64,000 nucleotides of DNA from Phoronis australis (lineage: Eukaryota > Animalia > Phoronida), in the NCBI GenBank assembly GCA_002633005.1, contig NMRA01000157.1, forward strand, positions 62,001 through 126,000, in the 5' to 3' direction. The notes beneath the pieces were generated by a model. That model worked only from the letters and a program-made list of their open reading frames with translations. It made no database searches and was not told the origin of the DNA. This document shows, piece after piece, positions 102-57,344 of the stretch. Both the position numbers and the translations under genes were made by a program. Each line of letters starts with the position of its first letter. The stretch's first letter is position 1.

Positions 102-13418
<13,317 letters not shown>

Positions 13419-19464: not shown

Positions 19465-19570
19465 CTATGTCAACTGGTTCGTTCCGGTCGTTGGGTTCAT
19501 GTACTCTTCGTGGTCCGTGACTTCAGCTGGCTGGGTAGTTGTTGTGCCACACTGGCCTGCTCTCTGAGAG
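19465..19570 (-). CDS. CAMTA: CAMTA terminal coding exon (SQRAGQCG...TNQLT*)
   Basis: cttctctgctcttgtag acceptor; TAG at 19467-19465; followed by a long U-rich 3' UTR. Confidence 0.75.
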
Positions 19571-22500
19571 CTACAAGAGCAGAGAAGCAGACGACATCAA
19601 TGAAAATGGAGAGGAAGTAGAGGGACATTGCTCATAGCACAGTTGCTCATAACACAACTCCATTCCACACTATGAGAAACGTGTCAATCAAATGCATTTT
19701 TGGATTAAAAAGGGTTAGAAATCGTTAAAAAGTTGGGATCAACATGGAAGCAGGTAAATACTCCTTGTGGTAGACGTGCGCAATGTGTTACAGAGTTTCA
19801 GTTGAAATTTCTGAAGGCAATAGAGGGAAAGAAACTGATGTCATGTGAACTTAAACTATTTAAACATATCTGAGAGCGGCTGGATAAAAATAATCGAAAT
19901 CCATAAAGTGAAACCATCTAATACAATTATTGCCTTTAAGTCAGACTAAGTTTAACATTTTCATAATGAGCAAATTAAAGTCATTTGTGACTCACAACTG
20001 CGTGATTTAAAAAGAATCCTGGAAAAATGCGGGGAGGGAAAGTTGAAATGACGCAAACGTAAATTTGAGGATACGGTGAACTTTGCTACCAGTCACTTTG
20101 GTTGTATAACTGCCATGTGATCAGGCAAACTCCGCCTACCTCTTGCTCAACACATGCATACAGAGAGAGACAGAGGGGAAAGCTGATCAAACGAGGGTTT
20201 GTAACAATTACTGTGAGGTAAGTGCAAGAACCTTCCACACTCATCGGTTAGCAATTCTCAATCATAACTGATGCGGTGCAATGGTTCCAGAATTTCCGAA
20301 CGCGGAGTCAAACCAAACTGGCAACTTAACGGCTCATTCTGCACTATTTCAGTACAAATTTGTAAGTTTATTTGAAGCATGGCTTACAATTGGTCGATTT
20401 TTGGTAGAGTTTCGAGTACACAGATTAGACACCAGGCGCTGATCTCATAAAACAGACGAATAATATGTAAAGCTAACTTTTTAAGACATACACGTTTAAG
20501 TTTAGATTTTCCCCGTGTTTCAGCTCAAGAGATATTTAAAAGATTGACAGTCGGGCTAAGCCTTCTTAATAAAAATGCACGAGACCTAAAGAGTTGGAAA
20601 AATATATACGAAATAAATTTATGCTCAGATGAAATGGGAACCGGGTTTACGAATCATACATAAATTTAATCCACAACTACTGGCATGATCTATACAAAAA
20701 AATATAAATTATAATGGTCAACAAAATTTTGAGCTGAAAGTGGCATATGCCAATGGTCATGCAAACTTCCTCATCTATCATTGCTAACGAACCGACACAC
20801 AAAATTTTAGATATCAAATCCCCATGGCCCCCAGTTTGCTCCCTGAAGCCTCCAGGCTTTAATCAACATCCTGGATTTTCATTGAGTCCAATGGTGGTCA
20901 ATATTCACTCCTTTACCCAGAAAGTTTAAGTCACGTTACGTTAAGTTTTCACGAATCAATGCAATTTGTAGAGGTAAAAAGACCATTTTCACAAGATAAA
21001 ACTTAATTTTGAATTAATTCAAGACAGAAGAAAAATCTTGAAGTGAACCAGGCAGATGGTTGAAATGCTGATTTTCTCATGCAGGACTGAACTGACAGCA
21101 GAGAGTTGTACATAGACACCTGTGGTTTAAAAATCCTTCGTTATGCTACATAAAACACACAAAAACAAATTATACTTTCAAGAGGAAAGAATGACGCTGG
21201 AATAACACAAATAGGATGACTATGTCGTGACATTGCTGCTTACAATCAAAACAAAAATTCGCACTTAGAAATAGGCAAGATGACAGAGTACAGTAGGTTT
21301 CACAACATAACAATCAAATATAGAGAAATGTTCACCACAACATAGATAATTTTTCAGTCACATAAAACGAATACACAAGAAATGTTGTTTTCTCACAGTA
21401 CAAGCCAATGACAGTTTCCAGCATTGCTCAGCTAACAGTCTCAGTGCAGACACTGGACTTTTTCAAGCATATCTCAATGCAATGATCAATGACAATACAG
21501 AGCCCTCTGTAAGCAACAGTGGCGAATCACAGCTGCTTCATCTGTTCACAGGGAAAAACTGAGAAGTGTGTGACAATGTGTGCTGTACTGTTTGTGCGCA
21601 CCAAAGAAGTAATTGCAATGTAAAAAATGTCAGATACGACACTTAAAGAAACAGACAACCAACGCAGCAAAAGACTGCAGGCAACTCACCCGATAGGCAC
21701 TGTACATGTCCCATAACAGACTGGCAAATGGTTAGGAAACAAACACCATTATATTAGTTATGGCTGGCAGGAAAATCCGAAGTACTACACTATGCTACAC
21801 CCAGTAAATATAAAAGCTCGCATGCAAAATATTACAATTGATTTCACCCGCATCCTACAACAACGATCCCACATTAAATGGACAATCCATGGTCACATGC
21901 AGGCAAATTGTTTGTCCAAACTTCAAACTCCTTAAAATACATCTCACTGAATAACATTTAGAAGTGGTTCTGTAAATAGCCTAAAACTAAACAAACAGCA
22001 TGTTACAAATTTTAGGCAACTTTTTCCGATACTTGTACAGTATAAAGTGGTTTTCTAAACAAAACTTAATAATTTCTGACAACACAATAAAATCTATAAG
22101 AAACGATCCCCTCAACATCACTCTGAATTTTTTAATGTCTCCACTACCTGTCACCCATTACATAAATGATGAAATTTTAGACCAGGGCCCGGTCTCCAAT
22201 CTTTTTACTCGAAATGGAACTCGAAATTAGGTTTGGCATTTTCTACTCTACTTTTGAGCGAACTCAAGATAAGTGTCTATTATTCTATGCTCGAGTACAC
22301 AATAACTTACGTAGATAATTTATTGTCCTTAGTTCACGGTTTGCAAACCCAATATTAAAGCAATAAGTTCGAGTTTGAACTCTAAATTTCGAGTTTTTAC
22401 TCGAGTTTGTAGCACGAATGTAAGGGTCTTCAAGGGCAAACTTGAACTAGAAACTCCTATGCATAAACTATAATGCATTCGAGCACAGTCTGATAACCAA

Positions 22501-25500
22501 TTATCTTAAGTTCGCACAAAAGGAGCAGAGAAATTGCCAAAAATAGTTTCGAGTTCGTTTCGAGTACAAAGATTACAGACCAGGCCCAGGTGTTTAGCAG
22601 CTAGAGTAAGTGTGTTGTCACTGCTACTTGCAAGCCAATTTACAAGATCCCATAACCAGTGTAATAGCCCAAGAACACTCAAAAAATGAAACGCGTTCAC
22701 AGGAAACAAAGATGCGTCTTGGAGAAAGTTGTGCATGTGAACGCGACCCACAGAATATTTCTCAATATCAGCCATTTACCTGAATGGACACATTTCAACT
22801 GAAAGGGTAAGTAGCAACAAAAATGAATACTTCTAACTGTTGAAAGCATGCATTTCTTAACAGATATTTTTCTGAAAAATACTTCCGCAAAGGACAACCC
22901 CAAGAAATAAAAAGTACAAAAAATTACCACCATACCACATTTTGTGTACCGTCTAAACCAATACAGTCAATGGGACCATTGTTACTCATAAGTAACAAGT
23001 TGTGTGCAAATTTGGACAACAAGACCAACATGGCGTGTTGATATCTGCCCAGAATGCATTGCATATGGTATGTTTCTAAGGTTGCTTATCAGCTTTGTGA
23101 AAGCTACAAGGAGACAACGTTTGACCAGGGGTCAGACCGAATGGTCAGAACTGACAAAAGTGTTGGTACCTCACCTTTTAAAACTAACATCAAATCAAAA
23201 AGTTTAAAATATGAACAGTTTTCAACATTTGCAACGAAGAAATAAAACATACCACAAAAACTAAGGGACACAGCGCTGGACATCCAACAATTAGCAGGTC
23301 TAGTGCTTCTTTTTTAAAAAACAATCATAATGTCTGGCAAGAACAAAGACAGACACAAAACACCACAACCGGCAAAACTGGTAGCTGCCATCATCTTCAA
23401 AATGGAGGAGCCACTAGGTGGTGCTGCACCAGTCGAATCAGCCCAAAAATCCATTGGTACCTGCGCGTTACACTAACTTACATCTTTGAAAGTTTCATTA
23501 AAATCATCCGAAAGCATTCTTTCCACAAAAGTCCCTTATTGAGGCAAAAATGGCCACTAGGGTTGCAGTGGTTGAATTCGATGGAAAATTAAATAGTGAC
23601 GGCACACTGCCATCACATACCTCTGTAAAATCTGTCGAATAGTTTTTTAGATAACATCCGGAAATGCTCTTAAACCTAAAAAGTACTGAAAAAGTCCCTT
23701 AGTTGTCAAGACCAAAACGGCCACTAGGGTGTGCTGCTGTGGTCAAATCTGCCCGAAAACAGGAGTGGTGCTGGCACATTGTTGTCACATATATATGTCT
23801 GTATCATGTTTCATTGAAATCCATGAGTTCTCTAGATATCATCCAGAAAAACCTCATCCATCAGCCCCTAGGAGAAAGTGAAGATTGAAAAGTGACATAC
23901 TCCGTCTTAAGCCGCATTTACACGGGAGACAACTCTCATGGAGCAACTAACACGGAACAGGTGATCAGGAGCAAGTGTGTGTAACTTTAAACATGACTGA
24001 CACGCAGCAAGTTGACACCATGGCGGCCATTTTTGACACCGGTTCGAGAGATAAAGTAAGTTGAATTCGATCAGTTGCTCCAGTTTCAACTCCACGTCTA
24101 AACACAACTGGGGCGATTGTGCAATAGCGTATATACGGGCGATCCACAGGCATTTCACATGGTTTGGATGTTGGCTGTTGCTTATGCAAGCATACGCTGA
24201 CAGTCTACGTGTAAATGACTCATACCGATCCAGTTTTGATCCAATGTCGTGAAAATACGACTTAACTGGAGCAAGTTGCGCCATGACAACTCGCACCGTG
24301 ACAACTGATCCCAGTGCAAAAACGGCTATAATAGTGATGACCGACACTCTTGTGCCAAATTTCATTAAGATCTTATCAGGAGTTTTTAGATATCGAGCAG
24401 ACACACGGACAGGATGACGACAATATGCAACCACATAAATTATAATGTGGGAGCACAAAATGTAATCTTGTGTGAACAGAAAACAAGAAAATGTCGAGCA
24501 AACAAATGTTAAAGTCACGTCACGGCAACCTAGTGTACAAACTGACGGTGAAGCCGGGGGCATTAACAGAATGTTGTCTTGCAATCACGGCAGAGTAAAT
24601 CAAATCACATGTTTTTCCCGATGCTACAGAACACATTACACACTGGATTTGATTGAATAAAACATCGATACACACAATCTAAATTACTTGAAGCTGCATG
24701 TCGTCCTATTGGCTGGCTGAAAACAAATTAAGCTTTTTTCTCTCATAAAATCCGTCTCATATGTTACAGGCAATGCAGACAAGCACCATTTTTGAATTAT
24801 CTTGTAATTTTAGGAGACCTAACCCCAAAAAACTCTGAAGAGCTTTTTAGAATCAGGCTGATGGTCTCGAAGTCGTTGATGGTCACCTTTGTTCCAGCTA
24901 AACAATACGAAAATGCAGCTTCAAAGATCACCTGCTAAAATATAAGTCCATAAACTTTGTCTAATGAACTCAAAAGAAATGTATAAAGTTCACGCACAAA
25001 AACAAAAAAACCTTGATAATAACATGAATTATGTGTCAACCTATAGAGAACTCCAGTACCTTGGTATTAATCCGATGACTGTAGACGAAAAACAAACTCA
25101 GGACATTTGAAAAACTTAATTTCTTCAATCTAGTACACAGAAGTATGTCGCAGGAAGGAAATTTCGCTGCATTTTTCAAGAGAATGGTGCTTGACCAAAT
25201 GAAGACATTCTGACCCTCGCAGACACCACTACTTGACATCAATTCTAAATGATAACATTTTGCAGCTTTGTTTCCAACTTGACGCTATATTTCTGGGAAA
25301 CCACAATTCATTTTCCAGTCTCGGTAACTGAGCAAATAACTTTAAGTTTTTATAAACCAATGTGTTAATGTTTACGCTAAATAATCCATCCATGAACAAA
25401 CTCAGGACGCCGAATCGGAGAATTTTTAAGGTCTACCAAATTTTAGTACTCTTACACACAGATATTTCAGTGACTGTACTTCGAAAAATATTCTTTATCA

Positions 25501-28500
25501 AGTAAGGTAAGGTGCACTGTAAATTTTCGGGTGCTAAATCCATTCAACTAATGGTGACTATCCCTAAGAGTTTAAACCAAGGAAATAGTAGCCAAAACAC
25601 AACGAATCAAATCAAATAATTTGATATCTCACAATGCGATACATAAATCACAAATTCCATGCACTGCCTGACAACCAATTGGTTACAAGTCAGTCTCTTA
25701 AACAACACTATGCTTCTACAAGAATCGATACTGTTCCTAAATCCTGGACTAAAAGCACTACCAATAATTTAGTGTATACGCAACGACCGTGTCAATTGCA
25801 CGAATCACAACGAATCACCTTTTGGTACACGCCCACCCAGTGTCAATCAATGAGTTAACCAATCACTTACCTCGCACCAGCCACGGACTTGTTCCTTTCT
25901 TGATTGCGTTTCCTCTGATAATGAGTCCTACAAAAAATCACAGTTGCGAGTACAGTACAAGCCAAAAGTATTCAGACAAAATGATGCCCGGGAAACCACG
26001 TCATGGCGGCTGAGCGGAAGTCAAATTCCTCAACAGAGTAGTCTCCCCTGATGACCAAAAATGAAGGGAAATTAACAGGAAAGTTAGTGAGGTAGCTAAG
26101 CCTTTATGTCCAGTAATTTTTGCTGATAGCAGGATTAGCCGTCATAACAGGAAAACTGTATTTGGCAATTGCTTTTGTCTTGCATTCAAAGATTTAAACG
26201 AAAATTATGATGAAATGAAACGTAAACAAGATACTAGTAGATTTCCACCAAGACAGAAAAACATGTTTATTTATAACTTGAGAAATATTACGGGAAATCA
26301 ATTTTGAGATTTTTCCTTTCTATAAGTCCAGAATCAGAGTTGGTGCTTTTTCAAGAGTGGAAATTAGAGTAAATGTCACTCAGTGCTAGAGTACATATCA
26401 CTCAATGTGAAGAAGAAAGTACTAACAGTGAACCACTGTGGACTGTAATCAATGACGTAACAGGTCAACTCTACCTGGACCTCTGAGCATACTCCATGAT
26501 GCTACAGGTCAACTCAACCTTAACTTCTGGGCATACTCTATGATGCTACAGGTCAACTCAACCTAAACTTCTGGGAATACTCTATGATGCTACAAGTCAA
26601 CTCTACCTGAAGCACTAGTCATACCCTATGATTTTACAGGTCAACTCTACTTGAACCTCTGGGTACACTCTGTGATGCCAGAGTTCAACTCTACCTGAAT
26701 CTCTGCTGTATGATGACTGCAGCATTTCTACTCCGCTTGAATCGCTCATGTTCCTTGTATGTTCGATACTGATTCTGAATAATTCTGGCAGCATCCTGAC
26801 TCTTTTTGAACCGCTTCTGGGCGTAATATGTGCGGAACTGGCTCTGAATCGTCACAGCTGCTTCACTCATTCTTTTATAGTATGCATACTACAAACAAAA
26901 TAATCCCAGTAACATTGGTTTTTGCATTAAATTAGCAATCATTTTTCTAGCTTGAGATAGCTTTCAGTCTCAGTAACCATAGTTCTGTGAATTTTAATCA
27001 ATGATATAGGCTGAGCTTGAAAATTTTTGGCCAGCTTGAGTAATATTGGGCAACCCTGAATAACATTGGGCAAAGTTGGATGGTACTGATTAAAACCACA
27101 GAGTAATAGCTGCAGAATTGCAAAATTAATTGGCTGTTCGCTATTAATGCACCAACACCTACATGCAAGTTTCCAGCTTTCAACCAGTTACGATTGCAAC
27201 AAATTTGTACTAATTTCTTTGCGACTGACTATTGGATAAATGCAAACGATATAATGACTCATTTGCTTGACTAATGAAACTTTTCCATGACTTATTAATT
27301 TCTTCGGTTTTATGATACGAGGTTTTCAGGCATGAAAACTCGTTTTGTTACGTCCCAGATTTTCCATCGTTCCCAGATTTCCCATCGAGGAAACAACGAA
27401 AAATAGTTGTCAGCAACGCTGTTATAAGCTTGATCACTTTGCTTGCACGCACTAAAAACACAATAAAAACTCCCACCGTTGGCCAAGAGGACTTCTCAAC
27501 ACAAATGCGTCGATACCTGCTTGTAGCGTCGGTAGTAGCTTTGAATTAAGATGGCCGCTCTCACTTCCCGCTCTTTGTGCATCTTATTCTGCAGTTTAGT
27601 CTTGTACTGGCGAAACGCATCCTGGATGATTTTGGCTGCTTCAAACAGGTTACGCTGTTCTTGGTCTACGCAGGCAAACAGAAGAAAAAAAACCCCGAAC
27701 ATTGATGTTTTCAAATAAATTCTATCTACCGGCTAAGATCAAACAGTTTAAACTCATCAACCATTTACTAGAAACATTCCTATAACATAACAAGAAGTGG
27801 CAAGAAAACGGGAATAATTTCATGAGCGCATCTCACATCATAGGTTCATAAAAATGATCACAGGAAAATAGAACACGTATGAAAATAATGGACTCTGTCA
27901 GGTGGTAATGGCTTTCTGCCAGGATCTCCAGAGATCAGACGCTTCAAAACACAACTAACTTTTAACATATGTTTGACTTTAAGCTGCTATATATTCAAGA
28001 CACTTAAATGCTCAAAATGTATAACATTTTAAAAACCTAATAGCAAGATGTAGACTCCACGTAAAACGGCAACTGTTGGTAGTCCAGGAAATAGCAAAGA
28101 CTGTTCAAATGTTTATGGCGTCTTTATTGTCACACAGGAACTTAAGCCCAGAAAATGCGAGAACCGTATACCTGGAAAACAGTCAAACCTGAACACTCCA
28201 CCGTACCTTCAAGTATTGAAACCGATCCAATTTCTATTTTGATTATCAAATGTTACAATTACGTGAGGCACCAACTTACCTGACAATGTGAGCAGAGAGA
28301 AGTCTTGCTCGAGGAACATGGCGGGGGCGTTGAAGTACTCCCTGAAGTCTTCCTTGGTGGGCGGCGGCGAGTCCAGTGCAAAACTGTATGGGCTGGCTAA
28401 ACAGGGTGAGGCGGGGCTTTGGCACGAAGTGGGTGTACCCAGGTCAGGGTATCTAGAACAGACGCGGGCGGTTGAGGCGGTAGTAGTGAGTAAAAGCAGT

Positions 28501-31500
28501 TCCCATATAAATTCAAACCAAGAATAACATGAAATTGTCAGACACAAAAATATGAGAGACTATAATTAAAAAAAAAAACGAGAAACAAAAGAACCACGTT
28601 GGGCAAGAAATACTGCACAATTTTCGTAGACTAAAAACACCACCTATTGGCCAGAACGATAACACCATTAGCCAAGCTGAAGTCTGTGAGAGAGGAACAC
28701 AACGCTGCTAACTCAAGTGAGTAAAGTTCAATAAATTTTTCTGTATTTCAAAACATAAGTAAGCTAATAGACCCTATAAGAACCAGGTCACCAGTTAACA
28801 GCTGATTACGACCAGGACCCCAAGTCACCTGGTTGTTTTGTTTGATGACTGCCCCAATTATGGACGATACCTAACCCACCCTGGCTAATCATGGACAAAA
28901 TTTAGTTCCCGTGGGCATTAAACAAGAGAAAGTTGATGTGTTTTCTGTTTACAATCCACCCACCTCCCTTCATCGAATGCAGAGTTATCTCCCATCGGTG
29001 TGCATATTCCAGAGTCCTCAGCGTGCACCTGAGGCGGGGTGTGGGCAGATGAGCAGTGAGAGCTGAACGAGCTTCGTGAGCTACTACGCTCCCTCCCACC
29101 ACGAGGAACGTCGAAGTCATCCGAACGACTTGGCGACAACTTGATGCGCTCCGGAATGGCGGCGATGATCTGTGTGGCGAGGTTCACCATTTTCTCACTA
29201 GAGGGATCCTGGGCTTCCTCGTCAGAAACTGTCTCGACATCGATGTAAGGACTTGAACACCTGATGTCATCTGGAAATGCAGTATTGGTTAAGAAAAGAA
29301 CAAAAACCATGCTGGACACATCGCTGGGTGCACATAATGACAATGACTTATAAAGATAAAAAAATACTTTTTATTTTACAATGACTGAGCGATACTTACA
29401 CTGAATAAATGTTGCTTCGATCATATGCGAAGCAAAGTAAAGAAATATCCGAACAAATGAAAAACAATGACCACAAATTTAAAGAGCTTTTGTGCACAGT
29501 GAATTAACTATCACTCAAATAAATTTGAAATCGCAGTCTTTACAAAGTTCATTTCATATATATGTAGTAAACAGATTCACAGTTCAATGACCACTAAAAT
29601 GTATAATGATTGTCTGTGGAAGAACATTTCAGTATCCTACAGTACAAGTTGTTGTACTAAGTTATCTTTGTAGACAACAGAGGGCTAGCTCAGCTAAGAG
29701 AAAGTTTACAAATATATTTTACCCGTTTCCATGGCGACATCTTTCCTTGCATCCAAGAAGTGTCCACGGTTGCCAGCAAGCTGTTGGTCCTTGTCCATGA
29801 CAAAGAAACGGTTCACGAGGTTTAGTGACTCCTTCTGTGAGTTAGATATTGAAATGTCATCCAACAAGTTGAGATGGGGATCAGAGTTCACTGATCGAAG
29901 ATTCCTCGATTCCTCTATACTCTGAGGTGTGGTGCTCGTGCGACCCTCTAACGCTGGGCCAACCGAGAACTGCTTTGTTAAATACGTGCGTTTCTTTCCA
30001 GTTTTAGTATCGTCTGTCAGCACAATAGGTGACGCCACTGAAGCACTGCCAGCCATATTGGACAATGGCTGCGTTGGAATGTCGACGGAAAGATTGCTAA
30101 AATGGCTGCTGCCCACTTGGGGCATTGTCGTCGAGAAAGAAATGTCTGATATGCTACTGTCTGTGGCTTGGGTCGTGTTGAATGATGACGATGTGAAACT
30201 GGAATCGACCGAATGTGTTGGCGTTGTTGATATGAATGAGTCACCGGTCGTCAATGCATCCAGGTTCGGTGAGAGCGGCAGCAGAGTGGCGCTACTCGAT
30301 TTCTCCATATCAAGCAGGGACTGCGCCAGGTCGGAGTAACCATGGCAATGCGCTATCGTGACCGGCGTGAAGCCGTTCTTGTCACAGACCTCCATTGCAC
30401 TTCTGTCCCACTGGTACAGCACCTGCGCAGCAGACGCTCTACCAAGACCACAACTCCATAGCTGAAAATGAAATCAAAACAAACCAGGTTATTGGCAATG
30501 GGGACATGTACTCTCACCGACAAGAAACAGCAAAGAGACTAAGTGTTTGATGATGTGACTGACGTCATAATTTTCAAAAGCAGAAATAGTGTGAATCAGT
30601 GCAGTACCTTTTGCGAAAACCGTGAGTGACTTAAATTGTGTTTTTGAAATAACTCCACATTCACCAAGTCGTCTCTCAGTATTTATATTTATATTTATAT
30701 TTATATTGGAGAAATCAAAGATGGTTTGGTACAAGATTCAAGAACGCAAAATACCTGACAAACCGACAGGTGTGGGTGAACATACCTTGGCCACTGGATA
30801 TTTCGTTTCTCTACACTCCGCCAAAATCATCGGCAAGGGACAGAATTAGAAATAAGAATGCTCATAAGATTAAAGAATCTATTGAGATTGTGATACAGTG
30901 CCCCATTCCAACCTGGACAGTAATGCTCAGCGATTTCCCAGTATAATAATCTCCTTAATATTAAAAAGTGTACAGCGGGAACCAATCCATTCATTTGCAC
31001 CACACCAAAACGCTAATGACCATCCTATTTACTATCCTTGTCAATGTTTGCATTAAATTTTCTTTTTACATGCAGGCATTATGGTCTCAGATATAATGCT
31101 ACATTCAGACAGAAACAATAATGGCCTTACCAGCGGAGTTGAGGAGTTGCCATCCACGCTCAGCGCATCGACTTCAGCACTCAGCACAGCACGATTGACC
31201 TCGTGTCTATAAAAGTCGGACAAGGTCAACGATAAGGTCAATGCAAAGGTCACTCCCAAAGTATAAACTAGAAGAGCAATTATCAAAAGAGTTTGAATAA
31301 AATCAATTTTAACGTGGTTTGCAACAAACTGCACAGAATGAAAAGATGACAGTCACAAAAACATAAAAAATAGACGATTCCTTTTTATTCAACCATAAAA
31401 TTTTGCATCTGTATTATAGTTTAAAAGGTAGCACTACTTAGTAATCTTTCTTGTGATGCACTATGATAAGTGAAATCAAGGGTCTGTGTGATGAAATGTG

Positions 31501-34500
31501 ACTAAAGACATCAGACAGAAATGTGGTGTTACGCTCCACACAAGTATTTCAGAGAAATAATTGAATCTCGTGTCAGCACAAAAGCAAAAGTCTCTGAGAA
31601 TATGCCCATAACTTAAAGCGACTGAGATAATATTTCTAGGTTGCAATGAGCTCATAATTACACGGCAAACTTTCATTAATTCACTGTGAAGAGGAAGCGC
31701 GAGACTAAATTTCTGACTTAAGTACTAAGTCACTGTTCTCGTAACAGACCCCAGAACCAGGGTCGGATTCAGGATTTTGAGCTAAGGGAGGCCAGGGCAG
31801 AGTATTAGCCAGGATTTTGCCCATCAGACATTCGTACCTCCGAACTGCCAAATGGAATCTGGGAATATTTTGGGGGAACCCCCCCCCCCCTACCCCTTAA
31901 ATCTACCACTGAGAACACGGCACTTGAGCACTATCCATTGTTCCAGACACCAGAAATTTGTTCCATCTTGACATCTAAAGCACTGGTGGTCAGACAATGT
32001 AAAAAACACACTGCAATGCTACAGCTAGAACCATTGCCATAACTTGGATGTCGCTAGCAAATCTCAATCGAACCATTTTTTTACCTCCACTGAATGAGAG
32101 CTCTGATTAGCTTCTCGTAGCCCAGTGCAGCGGCAAAGTGCAGAAGGGTCATGCCCTTGTACGATCCTTGCTTAGACACATGCTCCAGCGTTGCCCAACC
32201 ACGTGTTTGCATTGCATTGCACGTATGCAATACCCTGTCTTCAAACGGATCATCGCTGGCAATCTTGTCCACATTCTGAAATGAGCAGAACACTGCCACA
32301 ACTTGTGTTTAGTTACCATGCGAAAGTAATTGAATGACCACCCTTGACAAGGCACTTTGGTACACTATGAAAAGCCTTGCTGGTATATTGTAACAAAACT
32401 TAGGCAGTTACTTTGTTTTAACCTATAACAGATTGTCAAATCTCTTAATCTTTTACACTTTATTGATTCTTCGTAACCCTCATCTGCTTTCAAAAATTTG
32501 TAACAATTTTGAGAATTCCAAACTAAGTCTGCAAAATTGGTGAGCAAGTGTAACACTTCAGATGTGTTATTCAACAGCTGTTGAGAAAGAGCAGCTAGAT
32601 GGAGCCACAATGACTACTTTGTGACACACTGAGGGAGCATTCATTGAAAAATATGCATATCTTCCAGGGAAGCGCCGAATGTATAATTTTTATAGGTAAT
32701 GCAACAAGTTTTGAGTTGAAATGAGCACAATTTAAAACTTACTCGGCAATTCTAGACAGTAAAGTCTGTTCTCAGAATTACAATACAGCAATGTTTATGA
32801 TGACGCGGCAGAAGATAGCTTGTAACACTCACATGTGAGTGTGCATGGAGGTTACGAGGAGCACCGTACTTTTGACAGTACCTTCACTTGCAACAGCATC
32901 ATCGACAATAATGAAAATCTCTAAGTAAGCGACAGAAGATTTGAAACATGTTTCGTGAAAAGTGACTCGAGACTTAAGACAAGAAATTTGGTCTTGGCGC
33001 ACCCCCTTCACAATTGTTGAATAAAGGTTTAGTCAAGTAATTATGACCGCATCACAGTCTCAAAATAATTAAAAGAAATCATCTCAAGTAACAATTATTA
33101 TGTAAATATTCTCAGGGACGACGTACTTTTTCTCAAGTGAGATTAAATTATTTTTCAGATACAGTCATGTAGAACGTAAAACCAAATGTCTGACTTAAGC
33201 CTCCAGTCATTTTTCATGAAACACGCCCTCAAATTACTAACTGTAGATCCTTACAGCGTGTGGGTTAAATTGCCCGTACGAGTTATCAACAGGTGTCAAT
33301 CGCTTTTCGATGTCCTGAAGCCTTTGCAACAATCCCGCTTGTAGCTGGTTAACTGCAATGGCAAGAAATCTTGCAGATGACTTCGAAAATACAAAATCCA
33401 ACAACAGTGCAAGTCATAAGTATTACATCAAAATGACCCGGAATTCCCTGTCATGACGACTGGGCGGAAACTGATTCATTTTCAGAGCAGTCTTCCGTTT
33501 CAACTGAGAATGAAGGGAGAATTAACAGGAAAATTAGTATTACGTGGCTAAGCCACTCTGTAATCAAAATTCTGTCACACTAATAGTTATTACAAGCCAT
33601 TTTTTGCTGTTTACAGAGTTATCCATCCTGATAAGGAAAGAGTATTTTGTCTTGTGCTGCATTTAACCAGTATTTAACCATTAACACCTTACTTCATCAT
33701 GCTGTACATTCAGTGGCTCTTTAAGAGAAAGCTCAAAGTCAAACCAAAACAGGAACACATAGGTCATTACTGGGCTTGACATCAGACAAGAAAACACAGG
33801 TATTGCATATTTATACTGATTTTAAGACTACAATATTTACACTGGTTTTGAGACTACAATATTTATACTGGTTTTGAGACTACAGTATATGGACAAAATT
33901 ATTTTGAGTTCAACACCGATTTCATGTAATACTTCGACATCGGAAGACAAAATAGTCTGCATTGAAACTCACTTTCTGTATGGTACGTCACTAGAGAGCA
34001 CCTGATTAGTCCAAAATTTTGAAACTTTACACATCAATTAGGGAAAGAGTTTTGTACTTGGTGCTTCAGACCGATTTCAATATACAGGCTTCAACAGCAG
34101 AAAACTCCGGGTGAAAATGGGGATACACGACGATACCGTAGTTTTGGTCACTTACCATCAATGTCCATCCAGGGCTGTCTCAGGCAGTGACCAGAAGATT
34201 TTGTCTTGTACTCAAACGCACAAGCGCTGGAGATGACGTGACCCTCACAGGCAACTTGTAACGTCACCAAACCGGCACAGTGCGCTGCAAGAATACACAA
34301 AGTCAAACACTTTACCACAAATGTCCGACATGGCCAGCAAGACAAACTTGGCTGCCCGTTTTGAAAAGTAAAACTTGCAAGGCAAAGGCAAGAACAAGTT
34401 TTCTACGTTCTTATGACATAGGCAGGCTTTCACTGAGCTATGTGTCAGTGACAAGCTTTGCACACTAGAAGCTAGAATTGCCTGGTAATGAGGTAGACTT

Positions 34501-37500
34501 TCAGTCACCGTAAGGAATTAGAAACTTGCCGCCCCGATAGTTCTTGCCAGTCATGTTTACTGTTCACAGAATTAGCCGTCACAACAGGAAAATGGAACAT
34601 TGTCTGGTACTTTTTCCTTGCACTGTAAGTCTGATACACAGGAGTGACTACAAATGTGAAACCATGAATTCTGAATCTATTGTGACCTGGCTTCCATTCA
34701 CGCCAAAGGCTGTTCATTCACCTGGTGCAAAGCATCGCAGGACACCGTTCTGCACAAGAGCTGCAGGCACCGTGACATCATCGAAGAGACATGTGTACGG
34801 AGAAGTCGTCGAGTACCACGGGCCGATGATAAGTAGCTTTGTACCACCCTGTGTTGAACAAGACAGGGTGTGTCAGACTTCAAAGACAATTAAAGGCTTG
34901 AAAGATGTACACATTTTCAAAAAAACATTCATAGGAAAAATAGTAACTTCATCGCCACTTACAGGCAACTTTTACAAGAGACAAAGCAAGTTTTTCAAAG
35001 ACGTTGAAACATACAACATAACAATTGAATTATCAACAAAAAATTAATATTTTATGGCAACCAATTGCCATGTGATAAAATAAAGTCAATGATGTCAATA
35101 ACTGTTTTACGTTGCCCCATTTTAAACTGCAGCCATAATTCAATGTACGTGTGCATGTGTACAAGAAGGAAAAGAACTTGGAGAGATGAAGAGCTGAGTC
35201 AGAAAGAGAACATTCAGGAGATTATAAAGTAAGCTTACATAATGCGCATGTAAGTTTCCTAATCCTACCAATTACCTCTGTGAAAGACCATTCTGGAGTG
35301 AAATCGGTGATGTTTGCGATACCCTCGCGTGACTCAACCTTTGGTGCTGCCCCCTGGGCAGACTTGGTTGTGACACCTCTTGACTGAGGAACAGGCAATG
35401 GCTGCTGTCGGCCACCGCTGGCACCATCGTGTGGCGTCTGCGACGTCTGCATGTCCTCAACAGAATTTAGACTGATGTCGCTAAAATCAGGTAGGTCAAG
35501 ATAGTCGAACGCATCCAGGTTGAACTCTGAACCCTGTGGCGACGGGGTTGTGATGGTCCTGAGATTTCGACTAGATTGTTGGAATTCAGCGCTCGGCTTT
35601 CCAAGCGATGGCAAGTTTGCCGACAGCGTTTGATGGAGCTCGTCTGCGGATAGCTGCAGGTTGTTCTGTTCCTCGAAGCTGCTGGACTGCCGAACAATTG
35701 GCTTCTCACTAACATGGCCTTCTTTTGATACCGCATTATTATCATGAGTCAACTGGCTGGGATTCCCTTTATCACAGTTATTCTGAACAGCCCGCTGAAT
35801 ACAGGTCATAGTCGCCTGGTTGGAGCTGGTTCCGGCGCTATACAGCGAACCGTCCCGGTTGATGAAAGAGAACGGAGCCGTGTTCTGCCCGCTGAGGATT
35901 ATCAGTCCATTGGCAGACGGTGAAAAGTTGAGGATTAACGGCGTATTCGATGTGGTGGTGGTTGTAGCGGCGGCATTGACGCCTGTCCCACCATGGTGCG
36001 GTGCCAACTGGATACCGTTTTCCTTCTTGTTTCGGTGTATGAGTTCTAACAGCCGGTTCTGGACCGCGCTCGCTGGCACACCAGTTTGAGATCCTTTTGG
36101 AGAGATTATTCGACATTTCGTGTGCGTGCACTCCGGCGAGTGCAACATACCGCCACCTGTTGTGCCACGACATAGACAATCGTGTGTCTTGGGTCGCGTC
36201 TTCTGTTGGCGAGTCTCCAGCACGTGACTTACTATAGCCTGAATCATTTCGCTGCTCTGAAGAAAATCAAACAAATTTCCATTCAATAGCTTAGCTTGAT
36301 TTTGTACAAGCCATATCGCATGCTACTCGATGTACACTGTCTGAGAATGTAATGGTACACACTGAAAACAGTGATTCTGACAAATCTCATGTTTTTTTTC
36401 TTTAACTGAATTTGGCACTTTCAATACTTTGTGTAACATACCATTAATTTTTTTTTTTGAATTCTGGATGAATACTGTTCTAGCAAATACATAAAATCTG
36501 AACCCGCAAATGCTCAACTTACCACAGTGTCTTGGGATACAGGACTGTCTAAAGTTTTTGGACTGGCATCTAGAATTGCAAAAAGAAATCCGTTGTGCAC
36601 AAGTGACTACCACATAGGCATTTATACAACGAGGACTTGAAATTGACTAGCATAGCAAGTGAAGCGAAAGTCCTGCAAGTAGAAGTGTATGCAATCAGCT
36701 AGTCACAAAGAGTGCGAAGATTCATTGAATTGTAATTGAATCACAGAGTGGGAGTGACCGATTTCAATATTAATATACCAATGCCCATTTTGATTCAATT
36801 ATTAGTTCCAATTTGCGCCATTAGGTGTCTTACAATATTACGACTTATTTGTATCTTTTGAAGAGTATTATTGAGATGTTGAACAAAGAAACAGCTCAGA
36901 ATAATTCACGAGTTGGAATCTTATAATATTTAACAATTTTGTTGCTAAAACTTAAACGAGAGGTAAAGTTAACTACTTATTTATGACAAAAAATTGACTA
37001 ATTTGACAAACGAGAATCGAATCGAAAATAACTGAATTTCTCCGAAAAAGAATCGAATCGAATTCTTAAAAATGCGCATCATCAAGCCCCTAGTAATCAC
37101 ATGGCTCCCTTATAACAAGAACGCTTCTTGATCACAAACTATTCCGGTGTCAAAAAGAGTCTCAAACAAAGAGTGGTCGTCTCACGCCCTGATCACAGCA
37201 CTCACACATAGGGGTCAGCTCTTGGGCGAGTTCTTCACGCGTCCACTCTCGTTTTTCTGGACAGTGTTGGAGCGAGGGCAGGGCTGCCTCTTTGTTGTCT
37301 TCCGTGTTGGGCGTGTTTAAATAATGAACCAGCACGAGGTCGCGGTTCTGTAGCAGCCAATAGCAGCGACGGTGGAACGTCGGCAATATGGCCGAATGCA
37401 CGTAGCAGCCATAAATGCACTGGAATAATATAATCAACATTAGAAACTCTTTACTTTCATTCATTTATTTATATTTATATTTATTATTTATTATTTTTAA

Positions 37501-40500
37501 TAATTTTAAAACTTTCTTGTATGACCATGTTGTGCTAAGAAAAAAATCTTACTAAGAGTTTGAAATCTGTACGACTTTCATTCTGGAGGACCTCTAACAA
37601 AACATTCGTTAAGAAAACTATAATGGTGATGCTTCTCATCGTAGTTAGGACTAATCAATAAAATACATGTCGTGCATGCGAGCATGTGCGCATGAGTTGG
37701 GTCATTAAGATGAAATCTACTTCTTTGTCCTATGCAATTAGTTTGGAAAACAACTTTTATTTATTGACTATGGCACAGGAAGCAAACTTCAAACTAGAAT
37801 ACATCAAATTATGCAGCAGCAACAAATGTTCACATTGAAACAACCAATAATTATATTGGAGTCATTCTTTCATTATATCAAGCAATAGCAAGAACAAAAT
37901 TAATGTTGATACACGCACTGTGTGCAACAATATGATGTCCTAGGTGACCACTATTAAAAAACCTAGCCTAGATGTAAAGCTATATATTAACTAATATTGT
38001 GACAGCTGGGTGAATAACGACAACCATAACGCCTGGCGACTTTCAACACCCCACCTCAGCAGTCTTTCCAAATGCCCGAGAAGTGGCCACTTAATTGAAA
38101 ATTCTCAAAAACAGAGAGTTGGAGCTTAGCCGAGCAGTAACCGGTTGATCAAAAAAATATTCAAACAGAGGGGGTCGATGCTTACGTGAGCATGAACATT
38201 AACCCGAATGTTTTCGGTAACTTAACAAGACCAACAGTGATTATTATCAGCAGAACCCTGTTGCCAAGCAACAATCGCGAAAACACTACAATGCCACAAC
38301 ATCGAACTAAACCCTGTTACCGATACAAGCGTATTTTATAACTCCCAGCTCAGGTAACACTAAACACTAAAGCTGTGACTGTTCCCACCTCTACACCTCG
38401 CACTTTCAACTTCATGTGATCTTCTCGCGTCGTCCGCCCATCCTTCCGTTTCTTCCAGCAGTAGCCATCTTGTCTGTAGCGCACGTGCTTTCGGCTGTAC
38501 AACAGCATGGATCCATTGGCAGGTCTGCAATGTTGCGCAGAACAGTACTGCCAGGCAGCTTCACAGGTAACTCTAATTCATGTCATTGGGCATCAAAATA
38601 ACAGCTTAGGCTGTTATTTTTCAAGTTTCACAGGCAATCTTCATCAGCGGAGGATGAAAAACAAAATTATCACCCGTTATTTGAAACATCTGTACAATAC
38701 AAACTATGCAATCAATCAGTGAAGTTGATTTTCTTAACGATTGTTTATTTTGTTGATAATTTCAATATGGACAGTGTGAATATGAATTGCCCTAGATTTA
38801 TACCAAATGCTGTAGTTTTGGAGTTTCTTTGAAGAGTGGTTCAGCAACCATGTACTTTTGCAAGCAAAAATTTGAACAATTTCAAATTTTGGACACAACA
38901 ATTGGCAAGCAGAAAATTAAAGTACCCACAGCCAACCTCTGTTAGCATTTCACTTCTTGACCAAACCACAATTAATCATCACAATGACTGCAGGACTGCA
39001 TTAAGAGGTGTATTACCTGGTCTGGACCTCAGACAACTGCCACAGCTTGTGTTTACTGAAGGCCAGTAAGATGGAGGCTATTTCCTGTCAAAACAGAAGA
39101 GAAAATGCGTGTTACCAGCCAGAGCTATGTTACCTAGATACAAAACATTTGAGAGAAAGGCCAGTTTAATCACATGCCTGGCTTAAACTTGCAGGGTCTT
39201 TGTTTTTGCAAGATTTTCGTGTCGACGGATCACACCCCAGTAGATGCCACATGAACAGAACAATTATCGAAATTTCTTTGGTATAAATGTCTCGCATCGT
39301 ATTTAAGCTCTAATTTTCAACAATTCAAAACCTTTGTTACAGAAAATTAGCGTGAAGATCTTAACATGAACAAAAATTCTTTCTCACATCTGTTGTGAAC
39401 TTTAGGAACTGTTTAGGGACTGTTCCTGACATCAAAGGAAAGTGATTTACTCGTCTTTTGGCACTGAAATACTCCAAAGATTGTGTTCGTAAAAAGGAAA
39501 CGTTTTCAAATACGGAAAAGCTCAGTGGTGAGAGGATAGCAATTTTTTGAAACAGCTGCGAACGCAGTGTCTCATTTAAAAACCCTGCCTTACTCATTAG
39601 CCCAAGTGCGTACCTCATTCGTGTTCCACCGGTGTCGCTCACGTGTGAAGTCACCAGCAGGCTCCACCTCTTCTAGCTGCTTGGGCAGAACAATCTCTCG
39701 AGGCTCTGCAGAAATTAAGAAAGCGAAAATAGCACCACTAGTCCTGCATGGCACGCTAAGTCGTGTCCACACTACGAGTAACCCCGGAACAACTTGCTCC
39801 TGTTCAGCTGACATTCACACTACAAACTAGACACCGTGTGGCAAATGCAGCGAAAAATAGATTAAACACCCTCCCCACCCACATTGTTGCAAATGCTCAG
39901 AATTTTACCAAACATTGTTTGTTAACAGCAAGGCCATAAGAACTAAGCTAACAGCAAAGTAAATTTTACTGAAAGTTATTTTTTGTTGAAAAATTTGACA
40001 ACATGAAATAATCAAATAATTTTATACTACCAGGAACTCCTAGGTCTCCTTATGGGGACCTCCTGGTGGCTACTATACTCCACGACTATACAGCCAGAAG
40101 GGGTTTTCTTCCTGAAAGAGGCCTAATAGCTGTTTATTGTTACACTAATCAATCAATGCTTTGACATCAATTTTCACTTTGGGTGGTGAAGGAACATGAC
40201 CCTGGTGGTGAAAATTACCCCTCAATGCAAACAGAACATTAGTCTAGCTTAATAGGTAGTGTTTTTCCCACTCATGCGAACCTAGCGAGTTGCCTTCGAT
40301 TTGCCCACCTGATTGATTTTTCATTTTCTAAATCCCCTCGGACGTTAAATTAAATGGGGATGGCATTAAAAATGAAAACTTGTAGTCATTAGCAATTATA
40401 CTAAACACTGCACCACAAGCCATCTGTCAAAGTCATAGAACAAAATACTGAATGTATCAGGCATCATGCACCACAGAATAATGTCTACACCAGCTGCAAC

Positions 40501-52828: not shown

Positions 52829-53806
52829 CATTGTTGTTAAGGTAATCAGCTCAAAACTTAAATCACGCGGGACACCATCTTGGAATACCAAGAGAACACG
52901 GGTGAGGAAAGCATCGCGTACACCGACAAGCACTCATGAGGTCACAGCTGTTCACGAAATGGGTGCTCAATCCGCTCGCGGACACACTCGCTATAGAACA
53001 GGCTCATGCTGATTTACTGGGGGTCCACTTACACTAACTTCGCAGCTGATTTGTTTGAATAATAATTCCTATCAACATCATTTGTCGTTTCTTCACCTAC
53101 CGCTAGGTCTCTGGTTTAAACACCGGATGGTGTAGTTGAATAATACTCTTGAACTAACAGTGAGGATTGGATTCGAGGTTACTAAAACAATTCTCGCGCA
53201 ATTCACAGTAAATAATGACGGGCTGCTCAGCTATTATCTCTCAGATTTATTTTCTCCTGTTCCTTTACATGTGGCTGTTGGTCTCTAACCATCGATTTTT
53301 CTTATTTTGTTAAGACATTTCTCTAACTGTTGTGAAAAACGCGACAACAGATAATGACAAATGTTGCGTTCCGAGTCGCGGCCTCTAGCAATTACTTCAG
53401 TCAAAGAGGAATTAACCTTTCCCACTGCAATGGAGTTGCGCAACTCCTCACTTTCATCTGTGCCTGTTTGAGAAGAGTTGCGATAGCTAATTAAGTCCGG
53501 GAGTTAAGCTTCTTCATAGAGCGAAACTCCCGCAAAACAAGAGTCAGTTGCGGTGTTGGAGGGAAAGTAACAATAGTCTCATTAATACTGCCCGTCTCTG
53601 GTCATTTACTAATGACACTGACTGACGTAGACACAGCAGTTGAATGACATTCCCAACTGAATGGCGCTAATGATGCTGACACATGGATGAGATAAAATTC
53701 TCCCTCATCACGCCTTTCTAGTCACAGGGGGAGCCACGAATTCAGAAAAGCACAATAAAGGAGCATCAGACACGAAAGCATTTTCAATACCGCGCTTAGA
53801 TGCGTG

Positions 53807-55395
53807 TAACTTTGAACTTATCTGACAAGCCTGCGTATTTAGACAAAGACCTGCAAAACTGAAGATTTTAACTCAATAAAAGCATATATTTTCTAAAAGT
53901 GGAAAGCCAGTAGAATTTGACTTTTTAATATATGACAGCCTTTCATCGGTTGGATTACAAGACCATGTCGTACTAGTAAATTTAAGCAAAGAAGATAGAT
54001 AGATTCATAGCAAAACCAATGACTAAATTTCATTTGAAATGTTCCAAGATGAAATCTCAAAAATGCTGTTGCAGTTTTCTAAACCATAATTTCATTTTTC
54101 ATTTTTTTATTTTATTTTCTCATAAAAATCATGAAAACCCTACCTATTTTCAATAGCCCTCGTGCAAGAGTGCAACATTTTAAAAACGGTTTCTAACAGC
54201 GTTTTGTAGAACAGTGCATGAAGTCTGGTCCAAGAGTTTTATACGGATTCGATCAGACATTTTTGAAATATGATGTTTTAAAGTTAGTTTTCTACGGCGG
54301 TCCTTCATAACCTTAAGACTGCGACATGTTAGCAGCAGAAGTGGATCACTAACACTGACACTGCAAAAATGTGCCGTCATCAGGCATGCAACTGATTCCA
54401 AAACATCTTTTTGCTCAACTGATTAATTTAAAGATGCATAATCTCATTAAATTGTGAATATGCAAATGAAGTACTAATTCAGAAACAACCCCGGGGTCCT
54501 CCAGTGTGCCGGAAACCATCCCAGAACCACTTACCATTACAATCTCACAAAAGTCTCCTTTTGCAAGACTATTTTTATGTAAATGAGTATGGTAACATTT
54601 TATCGGTATCCTAATGAAACAAGGCACAGTGTTTATTATTTATTCATTTCACTATCAAACCGTCAAACAACAATTGCGTAATATTTGGAAATACTGGGGT
54701 TTTAATGTTCAAGCTTGTTTTTCAGTGCATCAGTTGCAGTGTTTTCTTTAAAACCACAATTTATTTACAAATTGTTTCTCTTCCATAATATACTTGCACA
54801 CAGTTCTTCAGGAAGTCACTAGGTGGCGCTAGCTACAAAATTAAATATACACGGTTTCAATGAGACATAGCATCTTTAACATCAATTGACGATAAAATTA
54901 TGAAACACTATAATACAAAACAACACAGAAACAGAGACAGACAGACAAATAGCAGGATGACAAAAATGACTAAGGTATAAGTAAAACCAAACTAGTTTAT
55001 CTACGGTAATTCATCAATTATTTAGAACGCAATATGGCCGACAAGTGAAATTCTACTTAGTCAAATTTCTCCACAAAAAAGCGGTTGATGAAACTTTAGT
55101 ATGGTTTGTACTGTTCAGATGTCGTAAAACAACCTTCGGTAAATATTTCATTATTGGTTTTAAAGTAATCCAGTGTTCTCTACAACAGGGAATTAATGCC
55201 TGATTGGAGTAACAGTTACAGAATTCATGTTCACGTTTGAAACTCCATGTTCACACTGTGGTAGTAGTGTCTTAAGTCTTGGAATAGCTGCACTGAACAG
55301 GTGCCAAAAGTTCAAAATGTCCCATCTTTGCTAAAAATTGACTAATCAATCATCCCCCAATACTTCAAACTCGTTGCATGGGTTTTCAAATTCGA
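53807..55395 (+). repeat. Copy 1 of a ~1.59-kb near-identical duplicate (ends at the N-gap)
   Basis: Aligns to 55760-57344 with about 25 hand-counted differences. Confidence 0.95.
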
Positions 55396-55759
55396 NNNNN
55401 NNNNNNNNNNNNNNNNNNNNNNNNNNNNNNNNNNNNNNNNNNNNNNNNNNNNNNNNNNNNNNNNNNNNNNNNNNNNNNNNNNNNNNNNNNNNNNNNNNNN
55501 NNNNNNNNNNNNNNNNNNNNNNNNNNNNNNNNNNNNNNNNNNNNNNNNNNNNNNNNNNNNNNNNNNNNNNNNNNNNNNNNNNNNNNNNNNNNNNNNNNNN
55601 NNNNNNNNNNNNNNNNNNNNNNNNNNNNNNNNNNNNNNNNNNNNNNNNNNNNNNNNNNNNNNNNNNNNNNNNNNNNNNNNNNNNNNNNNNNNNNNNNNNN
55701 NNNNNNNNNNNNNNNNNNNNNNNNNNNNNNNNNNNNNNNNNNNNNNNNNNNNNNNNNNN
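55396..55759. other. Assembly gap (364 N); a single N also at 8219
   Basis: N run. Confidence 0.99.
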
Positions 55760-57344
55760 TAACTTTGATATTATCTGACAAGCCTGCGTATTTAGACAAA
55801 GACCTGCAAAACTGAAGATTTTAACTCAATAAAAGCATATATTTTCTAAAAGTGGAAAGCCAGTAGAATTTGACTTTTTAATATATGACAGCCTTTCATC
55901 AGTTGGATTACAAGACCATGTTGTACTAGTAAATTTAAGCAAAGAAGATAGATAGATTCATAGCAAAACCAATGGCTAAATTTCATTTGAAATGTTCCAA
56001 GATGAAATCTCAAAAACGCTGTGGCAGTTTTCTAAACCATAATTTTTCATTTTTTCATTTTATTTTTTCATAAAAATCATGAAAACCCTATCTATTTTCA
56101 ATAGCCCTCGTGCAAGAGTGCAACATTTTAAAAACGGTTTCTAACAGCGTTTTATAGAACAGTGCATGAAGTCTGGTCCAAGAGTTTTATACGGATTCGA
56201 TCAGACATTTTTGAAATATGATGTTTTAAAGTTAGTTTTCTACGGCGGTCCTTCATAACCTTAAGACTGCGATGTGTTAGCAGCAGAGGTAGATCACTAA
56301 CACTGACAGTGCAAAAATGTGCCGTCATCAGGCATGCAACTGATTCCAAAACATCTTTTTGCTCAACTGATTAATTTAAAGATGCATAATCTCATTAAAT
56401 TGTGAATATGCAAATGAAGTACTAATTCAGAAGCAACCCCGGGGTCCTCCAGTGTGCCGGAAACCATCCCAGAACCACTTACCATTACAATCTCACAAAA
56501 GTCTCCTTTTGCAAGACTATTTTTATGTAAATGAGTATGGTAACATTTTATCGGTATCCTAATGAAACAAGGCACAGTTTTTATTATTTATTCATTTCAC
56601 TATCAAACCGTCAAACAACAATTGCGTAATATTTGGAAATACTGGGGTTTTAATGTTCAAGCTTGTTTTTCAGTGCATCAGTTGCAGTGTTTTCTTTAAA
56701 ACCACAATTTATTTACAAATTGTTTCTCTTCCATAATATACTTGCACACAGTTCTCCAGGAAGTCACTAGGTGGCGCTAGCTACAAAATTAAATATACAC
56801 AGTTTCAATGAGACATAGCATCTTTAACATCAACTGACGATAAAATTATGAAACACTATAATACAAAACAACACAGAAACAGAGACAGACAGACAAATAG
56901 CAGGATGACAAAAATGACTACGGTATAAGTAAAACCAAACTAGTTTATCTACGGTAATTCATCAATTATTTAGAACGCAATATGGCCGACAAGTGAAATT
57001 CTACTTAGTCAAATTTCTCCACAAAAAAAGCGGTTGATGAAACTTTAGTATGGTTTGTACTGTTCAGATGTCGTAAAACAACCTTCGGTAAATATTTCAT
57101 TATTGGTTTTAAAGTAATCCAGTGTTCTCTACAACAGGGAATTAATGCCTGATGGGAGTAACAGTTACAGAATTCATGTTCACGTTTGAAACCCCATGTT
57201 CACACTGTGGTAGTAGTGTCTTAAGTCTTGGAATAGCTGCACTGAACAGGTGCCAAAAGTTCAAAATGTCCCATCTTTGCTAAAAATTGACTAATCAATC
57301 ATCCCCCAATACTTCAAACTCGTTGCATGGGTTTTCAAATTCGA
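55760..57344 (+). repeat. Copy 2 of the ~1.59-kb duplicate (starts at the N-gap)
   Basis: Aligns to 53807-55395. Confidence 0.95.

Follow-up and report, generated by a model that had tools for sequence, protein, structure and literature searches.

The window, that is, the whole stretch of 64,000 nucleotides of Phoronis australis DNA that was analysed, carries a CAMTA gene on its minus strand (Table 1). The CAMTA exons were mapped in order by tblastn, which also matched the TIG and ankyrin regions of CAMTA homologs. In the Pfam analysis, two exons matched the CG-1 DNA-binding domain (PF03859; 1.2e-17 and 5.8e-12) and two the C-terminal IQ motifs (PF00612); when the exons were searched one by one, the ankyrin matches were weak and fell below the cut-off, and the TIG exon run alone gave no match. 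In a quick tree, for which 36% of the columns were filled, the CAMTA of the window was placed among the lophotrochozoans (support 99), outside the mollusc clade, with Lingula as the nearest record. Exon-like ORFs convergent with CAMTA, presumably resembling aldehyde dehydrogenase of the P5C-dehydrogenase kind, are found on the plus strand at 81–347, 8898–9104 and 13275–13415. At 53700–57300, near-identical ORFs flank an N gap, and thus likely reflect an assembly duplication.

Table 1. Features of the CAMTA locus in the window.
Feature	Position	Strand	Basis or remark
CAMTA gene, similarity-mapped part with CG-1, TIG-like, ankyrin and IQ exons	19465..39706	-	tblastn, Pfam
IQ-repeat exon, 194 nt	26695..26888	-	Pfam IQ 7.5e-08; junction reads
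Constitutive exon upstream of the cassette, 57 nt, phase 2-2	25871..25927	-	junction reads on both sides; homolog comparison
Likely second microexon, 19 nt, in-frame stop right after the split codon	22780..22798	-	X1 contig and depth; place inferred
Acceptor region of the cassette: AG, UGC at -6, CUAAY at -15 and -37, 41-nt AG-free zone	21721..21762	-	
Candidate cassette exon, 31 nt; enters in phase 2 and leaves in phase 0; ten whole codons, the third being W	21690..21720	-	sequence; top-ranked match to CAMTA cassettes
Donor GTGAGT of the cassette	21684..21689	-	top-scoring among the intron's 478 GT sites (intron length 6,300 nt; crude matrix)
Seven TGCATG (Rbfox-type) hexamers: 25663, 22852, 21901, 21826, 21083, 20763, 20158	20153..25663	-	intron scan
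Last exon, coding part, two reading frames	19465..19570	-	skip junction 19570/25871

Tandem units of about 40 nt, spotted by eye at 26450–26700 (minus strand), copy the donor sequence of the IQ-repeat exon; the reads use the first donor only. The intron at 26889–27517 (minus strand) occupies the place of a 7-residue insert present in some vertebrate records. A loose scan of this intron yielded one weak 18-nt candidate at 27228, and the reads show the direct junction only. According to the homolog comparison, the last IQ motif is unrecognisable in exon 25871..25927, whereas it is present in vertebrates, ambulacrarians and arthropods.

The 31-nt segment is located in the last, phase-2 intron of the gene, between exons 25927..25871 and 19570, and on the minus strand it is immediately preceded by AG and followed by GTGAGT. 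The preliminary description had credited it with a UGC near the AG, a consensus donor and a good acceptor; the first two were found, while under a crude matrix the acceptor turned out to be middling, ranking only 19th of 318 in the intron. A fixed-threshold acceptor-plus-donor scan of the intron therefore passed over the cassette (acceptor 2.0, cut-off 3), and gave four other candidates, one of which is the 19-nt exon. The length of 31 nt, the coding capacity (ten whole codons reading LLWDMYSAYR after a split S codon) and the shift of the last exon, all proposed earlier, are borne out by the sequence. Since the upstream exon ends in phase 2, inclusion of the segment adds ten codons and a predicted tail of 15 residues, terminated at 19523–19525; skipping is predicted to give a tail of 34 residues that ends at 19465–19467.

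For comparison, 11 CAMTA cassette peptides were taken from records of other invertebrates; as they were chosen by eye from the C-termini, this library leans to W-containing peptides. Against it, LLWDMYSAYR ranks first among the 3,565 stop-free 10-mers of the intron and first among the 70,389 10-mers of the window, and shuffled peptides reach its score in 0.035% of cases. The segment is likewise at the top of the 138 AG..GT segments with similar lengths in the intron.

RNA reads were taken from runs X2–X4, chosen by species label, and from X1, the choice of which was a guess, though the X1 contig is spliced. The skip junction 19570/25871 was covered by 10, 2 and 5 reads in X2–X4 (17 in total), and by 10, 2 and 4 at stricter identity. 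The stricter-identity table, which covers 18–19% of each of the three runs, contained two joints in all, and neither touches the cassette. The inclusion junctions predicted in the preliminary description, 25871/21720 and 21690/19570, were not listed in these three runs, where a joint call needs 3 reads and the depth is too shallow for calling absence. The 31-nt segment is nevertheless very probably a real cassette exon in this species, the intact signals and the peptide suggesting that it can be included.

In the spliced contig of X1, 19 letters stand between 25871 and 19570 in place of the 31-nt cassette. The depth of 2.13 in the bin 22665–22883 equals 24.5 × 19/219, and among the 43 19-mers of the intron that are flanked by AG and GT/GC, only 22798..22780 falls within this bin. 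It is thus likely that a second, 19-nt microexon is in use, at the place suggested by depth and flanks; its predicted effect is that the protein ends at the upstream exon. Records of scallop, mussel and snail likewise include short, stop-ended CAMTA isoforms. At the junction that holds the cassette, five lophotrochozoan proteins (P0151, P0059, P0145, P0168 and P0021; scallop, Lingula, Lineus, Dreissena and Mercenaria) have additional short inserts that keep the frame, which suggests that the last CAMTA intron repeatedly gains microexons in lophotrochozoans.

Outside the species of the window, mouse and fly excepted, exon lengths were deduced from protein isoforms. The two-frame test asks if a single DNA sequence can encode both annotated tails when its reading frame is displaced by one base; in 20,000 tries with shuffled tails, no run was longer than 6 codons. 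An insert of 3n+1 nt fitted 12 out of 15 isoform pairs in the first set and 13 out of 18 in the second, three of the 13 being hagfish pairs with a 7-codon run only. Complete 31-nt (10-codon) fits were obtained for bat, amphioxus, Argopecten, Haliotis, Biomphalaria, Amblyomma, Ixodes and Euwallacea, and, across species, for gar and kangaroo rat. In amphioxus 16/16 codons fit, and in the bat, for which both tails are on record, the 10-codon insert shifts the frame by +1 and 11/11 codons fit. Inserts of 28 nt (nine codons) fitted two Mytilus records, Cimex and Thrips, and one of 34 nt (eleven codons) fitted the annelid Dimorphilus. Compound inserts were found in scallops (31 + 24 nt) and in Lingula (27 + 34 nt), where the 27-nt insert is in frame and W-bearing and the 34-nt insert is frame-shifting. 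Partial fits across species were given by hagfish (10 codons, with the 7-codon run), two fly-like records, a barnacle and Hypothenemus. No fit was obtained in the first set for Lineus, for Potamilus against Mactra or for Saccoglossus, nor in the second set for hagfish against CAMTA1, for two arthropod records, or for amphioxus X2 against either X4 or an identical tail.

Saccoglossus and Acanthaster have a 24-nt W insert that is in frame (8 codons in Saccoglossus isoform X3), and in Apostichopus the W insert is terminated by a stop. The records of sea urchin, Holothuria, Clytia and Actinostola lack the insert, possibly as an effect of annotation. The 80 vertebrate-type records comprise 12 with the CAMTA1 inclusion peptide, 56 with a skip tail and 12 with another end; the CAMTA2-like records are devoid of the insert. 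The lineages between phoronid and mammal, which the preliminary description had proposed to search, thus carry the insert in amphioxus, gar, partly hagfish, molluscs, an annelid, ticks and insects, while ambulacrarians differ. The frame-shifting insert suggested there is seen in chordates, molluscs, an annelid, ticks and insects, but the shift is not universal, the insert being in frame in Saccoglossus and Acanthaster.

The 31-nt mammalian CAMTA1 cassette with two tails cited in the preliminary description agrees both with the bat records and with mouse Camta1 exon MmuEX0009018, listed with 31 nt and labelled 'Neural' (PMC8797185, table S2). Similar to the window exon, MmuEX0009018 lies in the last phase-2 intron and has ten codons, a +1 shift and two tails, and the peptides share L at codon 2, D at 4 and R at 10. 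Unlike the window exon, it has V or M for W, differs in the rest of the peptide and follows an intact IQ motif. It is a neural cassette, whereas the window exon is known from DNA sequence, with skipping alone seen in the reads. Fly Camta exon DmeEX0003698 is 28 nt long, Srrm234/eMIC-dependent and pan-neuronal, and 'changes the C-term region' (PMC8797185, tables S2 and S3). It shares with the window exon the junction, the frame shift and an acceptor with CUAAY plus UGC; fly-like records also share the early W, although the Drosophila exon is one codon shorter and its W stands one place earlier. Primer mapping placed the published rat and fly primers on both sides of this CAMTA junction, which in rat is the one assayed as RBFOX1-responsive in PMC12713644; depending on the frame, each of the two reverse primers encodes either the inclusion tail or the skip tail. 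The insert of Branchiostoma CAMTA isoform X2, known as an annotated isoform (RefSeq model) only, resembles the window exon in its 31 nt, its shift, the closest peptide and an upstream exon that is also of 18 codons. The vertebrate 21-nt Camta1/Camta2 microexons (MmuEX0009019, MmuEX0009028) are neural and belong to the same gene family; in contrast to the 31-nt exon they are in frame and lie upstream of it, and represent a separate event.

Ten pairs of peptides were compared, with p values uncorrected. The closest to the window peptide are those of amphioxus (VLWDYRSVFL; score 28, p 0.001, with 0 of 10,013 real 11-mers as high) and of a nemertean (DLWDMMHTVR; score 24). The window peptide scores 3 with bat (shuffle p 0.053) and 5 with gar (p 0.027), and the mammalian peptide shows no significant similarity to the invertebrate set (p 0.13); the S-x-L-x-D-x5-R pattern pointed out in the preliminary description is therefore present, but weak as evidence when taken alone. 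Amphioxus, in turn, matches gar (score 10, p 0.004) and bat (score 8, p 0.011), so that the similarity between window and mammal is significant only stepwise, with amphioxus as the bridge. Hagfish matches scallop (score 23, p 0.0008) and bat (score 10, p 0.028), and the second insert of Lingula reaches a gapped score of 16 with bat (0 of 3,000 shuffles), being closer to bat than the window peptide is. It is position, phase, length and frame shift that carry the claim of common descent with the vertebrate exon. The intron is in both cases the second after the IQ exon and in phase 2, and the 31 nt and the +1 shift of the last exon are common to the window segment and the vertebrate CAMTA1 cassette. 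Together with the intermediate lineages, these shared properties support the original reading of an alternative exon conserved between this invertebrate and mammals, and common descent of the two exons is probable.

The segment itself, its splice signals, its skipping and the frame-shifting inserts at the same junction in other phyla are direct observations. On this basis, we consider it likely (with a probability of about three in four) that the window harbors a regulated cassette which switches the CAMTA tail, is skipped in these RNAs, descends from an exon of the protostome–deuterostome ancestor, and is probably included mainly in neurons, as mouse and fly suggest. A real cassette, common descent and neural use, taken together, are fairly likely. 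There is a somewhat better than even chance that a single frame-shifting neural exon of 31 nt has been switching the tail of CAMTA ever since flies, molluscs and mammals last shared an ancestor, despite a change of regulator. Such an exon would have survived the change between eMIC (flies) and Rbfox (mammals), an almost complete turnover of the two tail sequences and, among lophotrochozoans, the loss of the adjoining IQ motif.

It is unlikely that the ancestor instead possessed two neighbouring microexons, a W-type one found in the window and other invertebrates and a second one kept by vertebrates, in which case the window exon would be ancient without being the orthologue of the mammalian exon. 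The two inserts of Lingula, the second of them closer to the bat peptide, would agree with such a history, as would the double inserts of scallops (31 + 24 nt) and of the window (19 + 31 nt), the extra in-frame insert of Lineus and the W missing from the vertebrate peptide. However, the single 31-nt shifting W-type insert of amphioxus resembles both window and gar/bat, the hagfish peptide resembles both scallop and bat, and two such inserts were found in none of the chordate records examined.

Even less likely is the separate origin of vertebrate and invertebrate exons in an intron that repeatedly gains short frame-shifting exons. Neural microexon programmes are described in PMC8797185 as almost wholly rewired between phyla, with convergence favoured for most same-position fly/mouse microexons; as far as the available part of that source goes, only four same-position exons are named, Camta not being one of them, and the compared exons are eMIC-dependent in both species. 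The varying lengths (24, 28, 31 and 34 nt), the extra lineage-specific exons in the intron and the weak direct similarity also fit convergence. Against it, the length of 31 nt is found again and again, in chordates, molluscs, ticks and a beetle, codon 3 encodes W from amphioxus to ticks, and neural inclusion is reported for both fly and mouse. That the 31-nt exon is a relic or rarely used in this species, with the 19-nt stop exon as the working switch, would explain why reads and contig gave only skipping and the 19-nt insert, but it is highly improbable given the strong and intact donor, two CUAAY branch motifs, stop-free frame and conserved peptide of an exon that, if neuron-restricted, is expected to be rare in shallow bulk data.

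The preferred reading, a regulated cassette of bilaterian age, leads to the question of regulators. TGCATG, an Rbfox-type motif, occurs seven times in the intron versus 2.5–3.1 expected, a mild excess (10 of 300 shuffles reach 7); the nearest of them precede the cassette by 106 and 181 nt and follow it by about 600 nt. The cassette acceptor, with its CUAAY and UGC elements, has the layout described for eMIC targets, namely a CUAAY branch point with UGC close to the 3' splice site (PMC8797185). Such targets are also marked by a long AG exclusion zone and a UCUC-rich tract; the zone of the cassette, 41 nt, falls within the 29–80 nt of four other acceptors of the gene, and no UCUC run is present. 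Camta1 splicing is RBFOX1-responsive in rat heart (PMC12713644), and PMC8975553 mentions that Rbfox1 is known to regulate a skipped exon of Camta1, which its accessible part does not name.

Stops in the last exon generally escape nonsense-mediated decay. Both CAMTA stops are located there, degradation is expected for neither form, and the cassette is therefore best regarded as a switch of the protein tail: inclusion would add ten residues and, by shifting the frame of the last exon, attach a different C-terminus. In lineages that retain the last IQ motif, the insert takes over from motif position 11. A hydrophobic residue occupies position 14 in 8 of 13 inclusion forms, in 0 of 13 skip forms and in 67% of 407 ASPM motifs, while the basic residues at positions 11–13 are lost in inclusion forms. 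Under a profile of the 407 ASPM motifs, the inclusion form scored higher in only 3 of 13 pairs, and in bat and gar it scored much lower. The idea that the insert serves to complete the last IQ motif was rejected on these two grounds, which rather suggest that the calmodulin site is remodelled. Replacement of the motif from position 11 onward would trade basic residues for a hydrophobic one (at position 14 W, V, M or L, and in insects W at position 13), and such remodelling may retune calmodulin binding. The animal of the window has lost this IQ motif but retains the hydrophobic, W-centred peptide, which is therefore likely a contact surface of its own; its partner may be calmodulin or a co-regulator.

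The mouse and fly exons have each been catalogued already, but the depth of conservation of the CAMTA tail exon is apparently unreported. Camta does not occur in the available portion of the main text of PMC8797185, where the mouse and fly exons are not linked, and it is absent from the supplements of PMC8379844 and PMC5703972; the parts seen of PMC5314398 and PMC10605228 contain nothing decisive on the tail exon. PMC12868881 deletes a Camta1 microexon which, judging from the 3–27 nt definition given there, is probably the 21-nt one. Orthology of these exons is nowhere stated in the literature covered, subscription papers being outside its scope; VastDB or Ensembl may already link them. A frame-shifting exon that keeps its position, and for the most part its length, in chordates, lophotrochozoans and arthropods would be a rare counter-example to the rewiring of microexon programmes and, if the interpretation is correct, one of the handful of alternative exons that can be followed through three superphyla of Bilateria. 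The conservation points to an old function of the CAMTA tail, beside the calmodulin-binding motifs by which CAMTA sets neuronal calmodulin levels; in worm CAMT-1, calmodulin binding at the IQ motifs feeds back on calmodulin expression (PMC8428840). If the interpretation is correct, neurons would have their own setting of the CAMTA–calmodulin feedback loop. The tail switch also sits in the C-terminal part of CAMTA1 which, in TAZ-CAMTA1, is said to hold a nuclear localisation signal (PMC8015719).

Interspersed repeats at 22180–22600, 23430–24420 and 25950–26060 attract reads and contigs from many loci, and the first of them shows opposite-strand joints, as expected of an inverted-repeat element.
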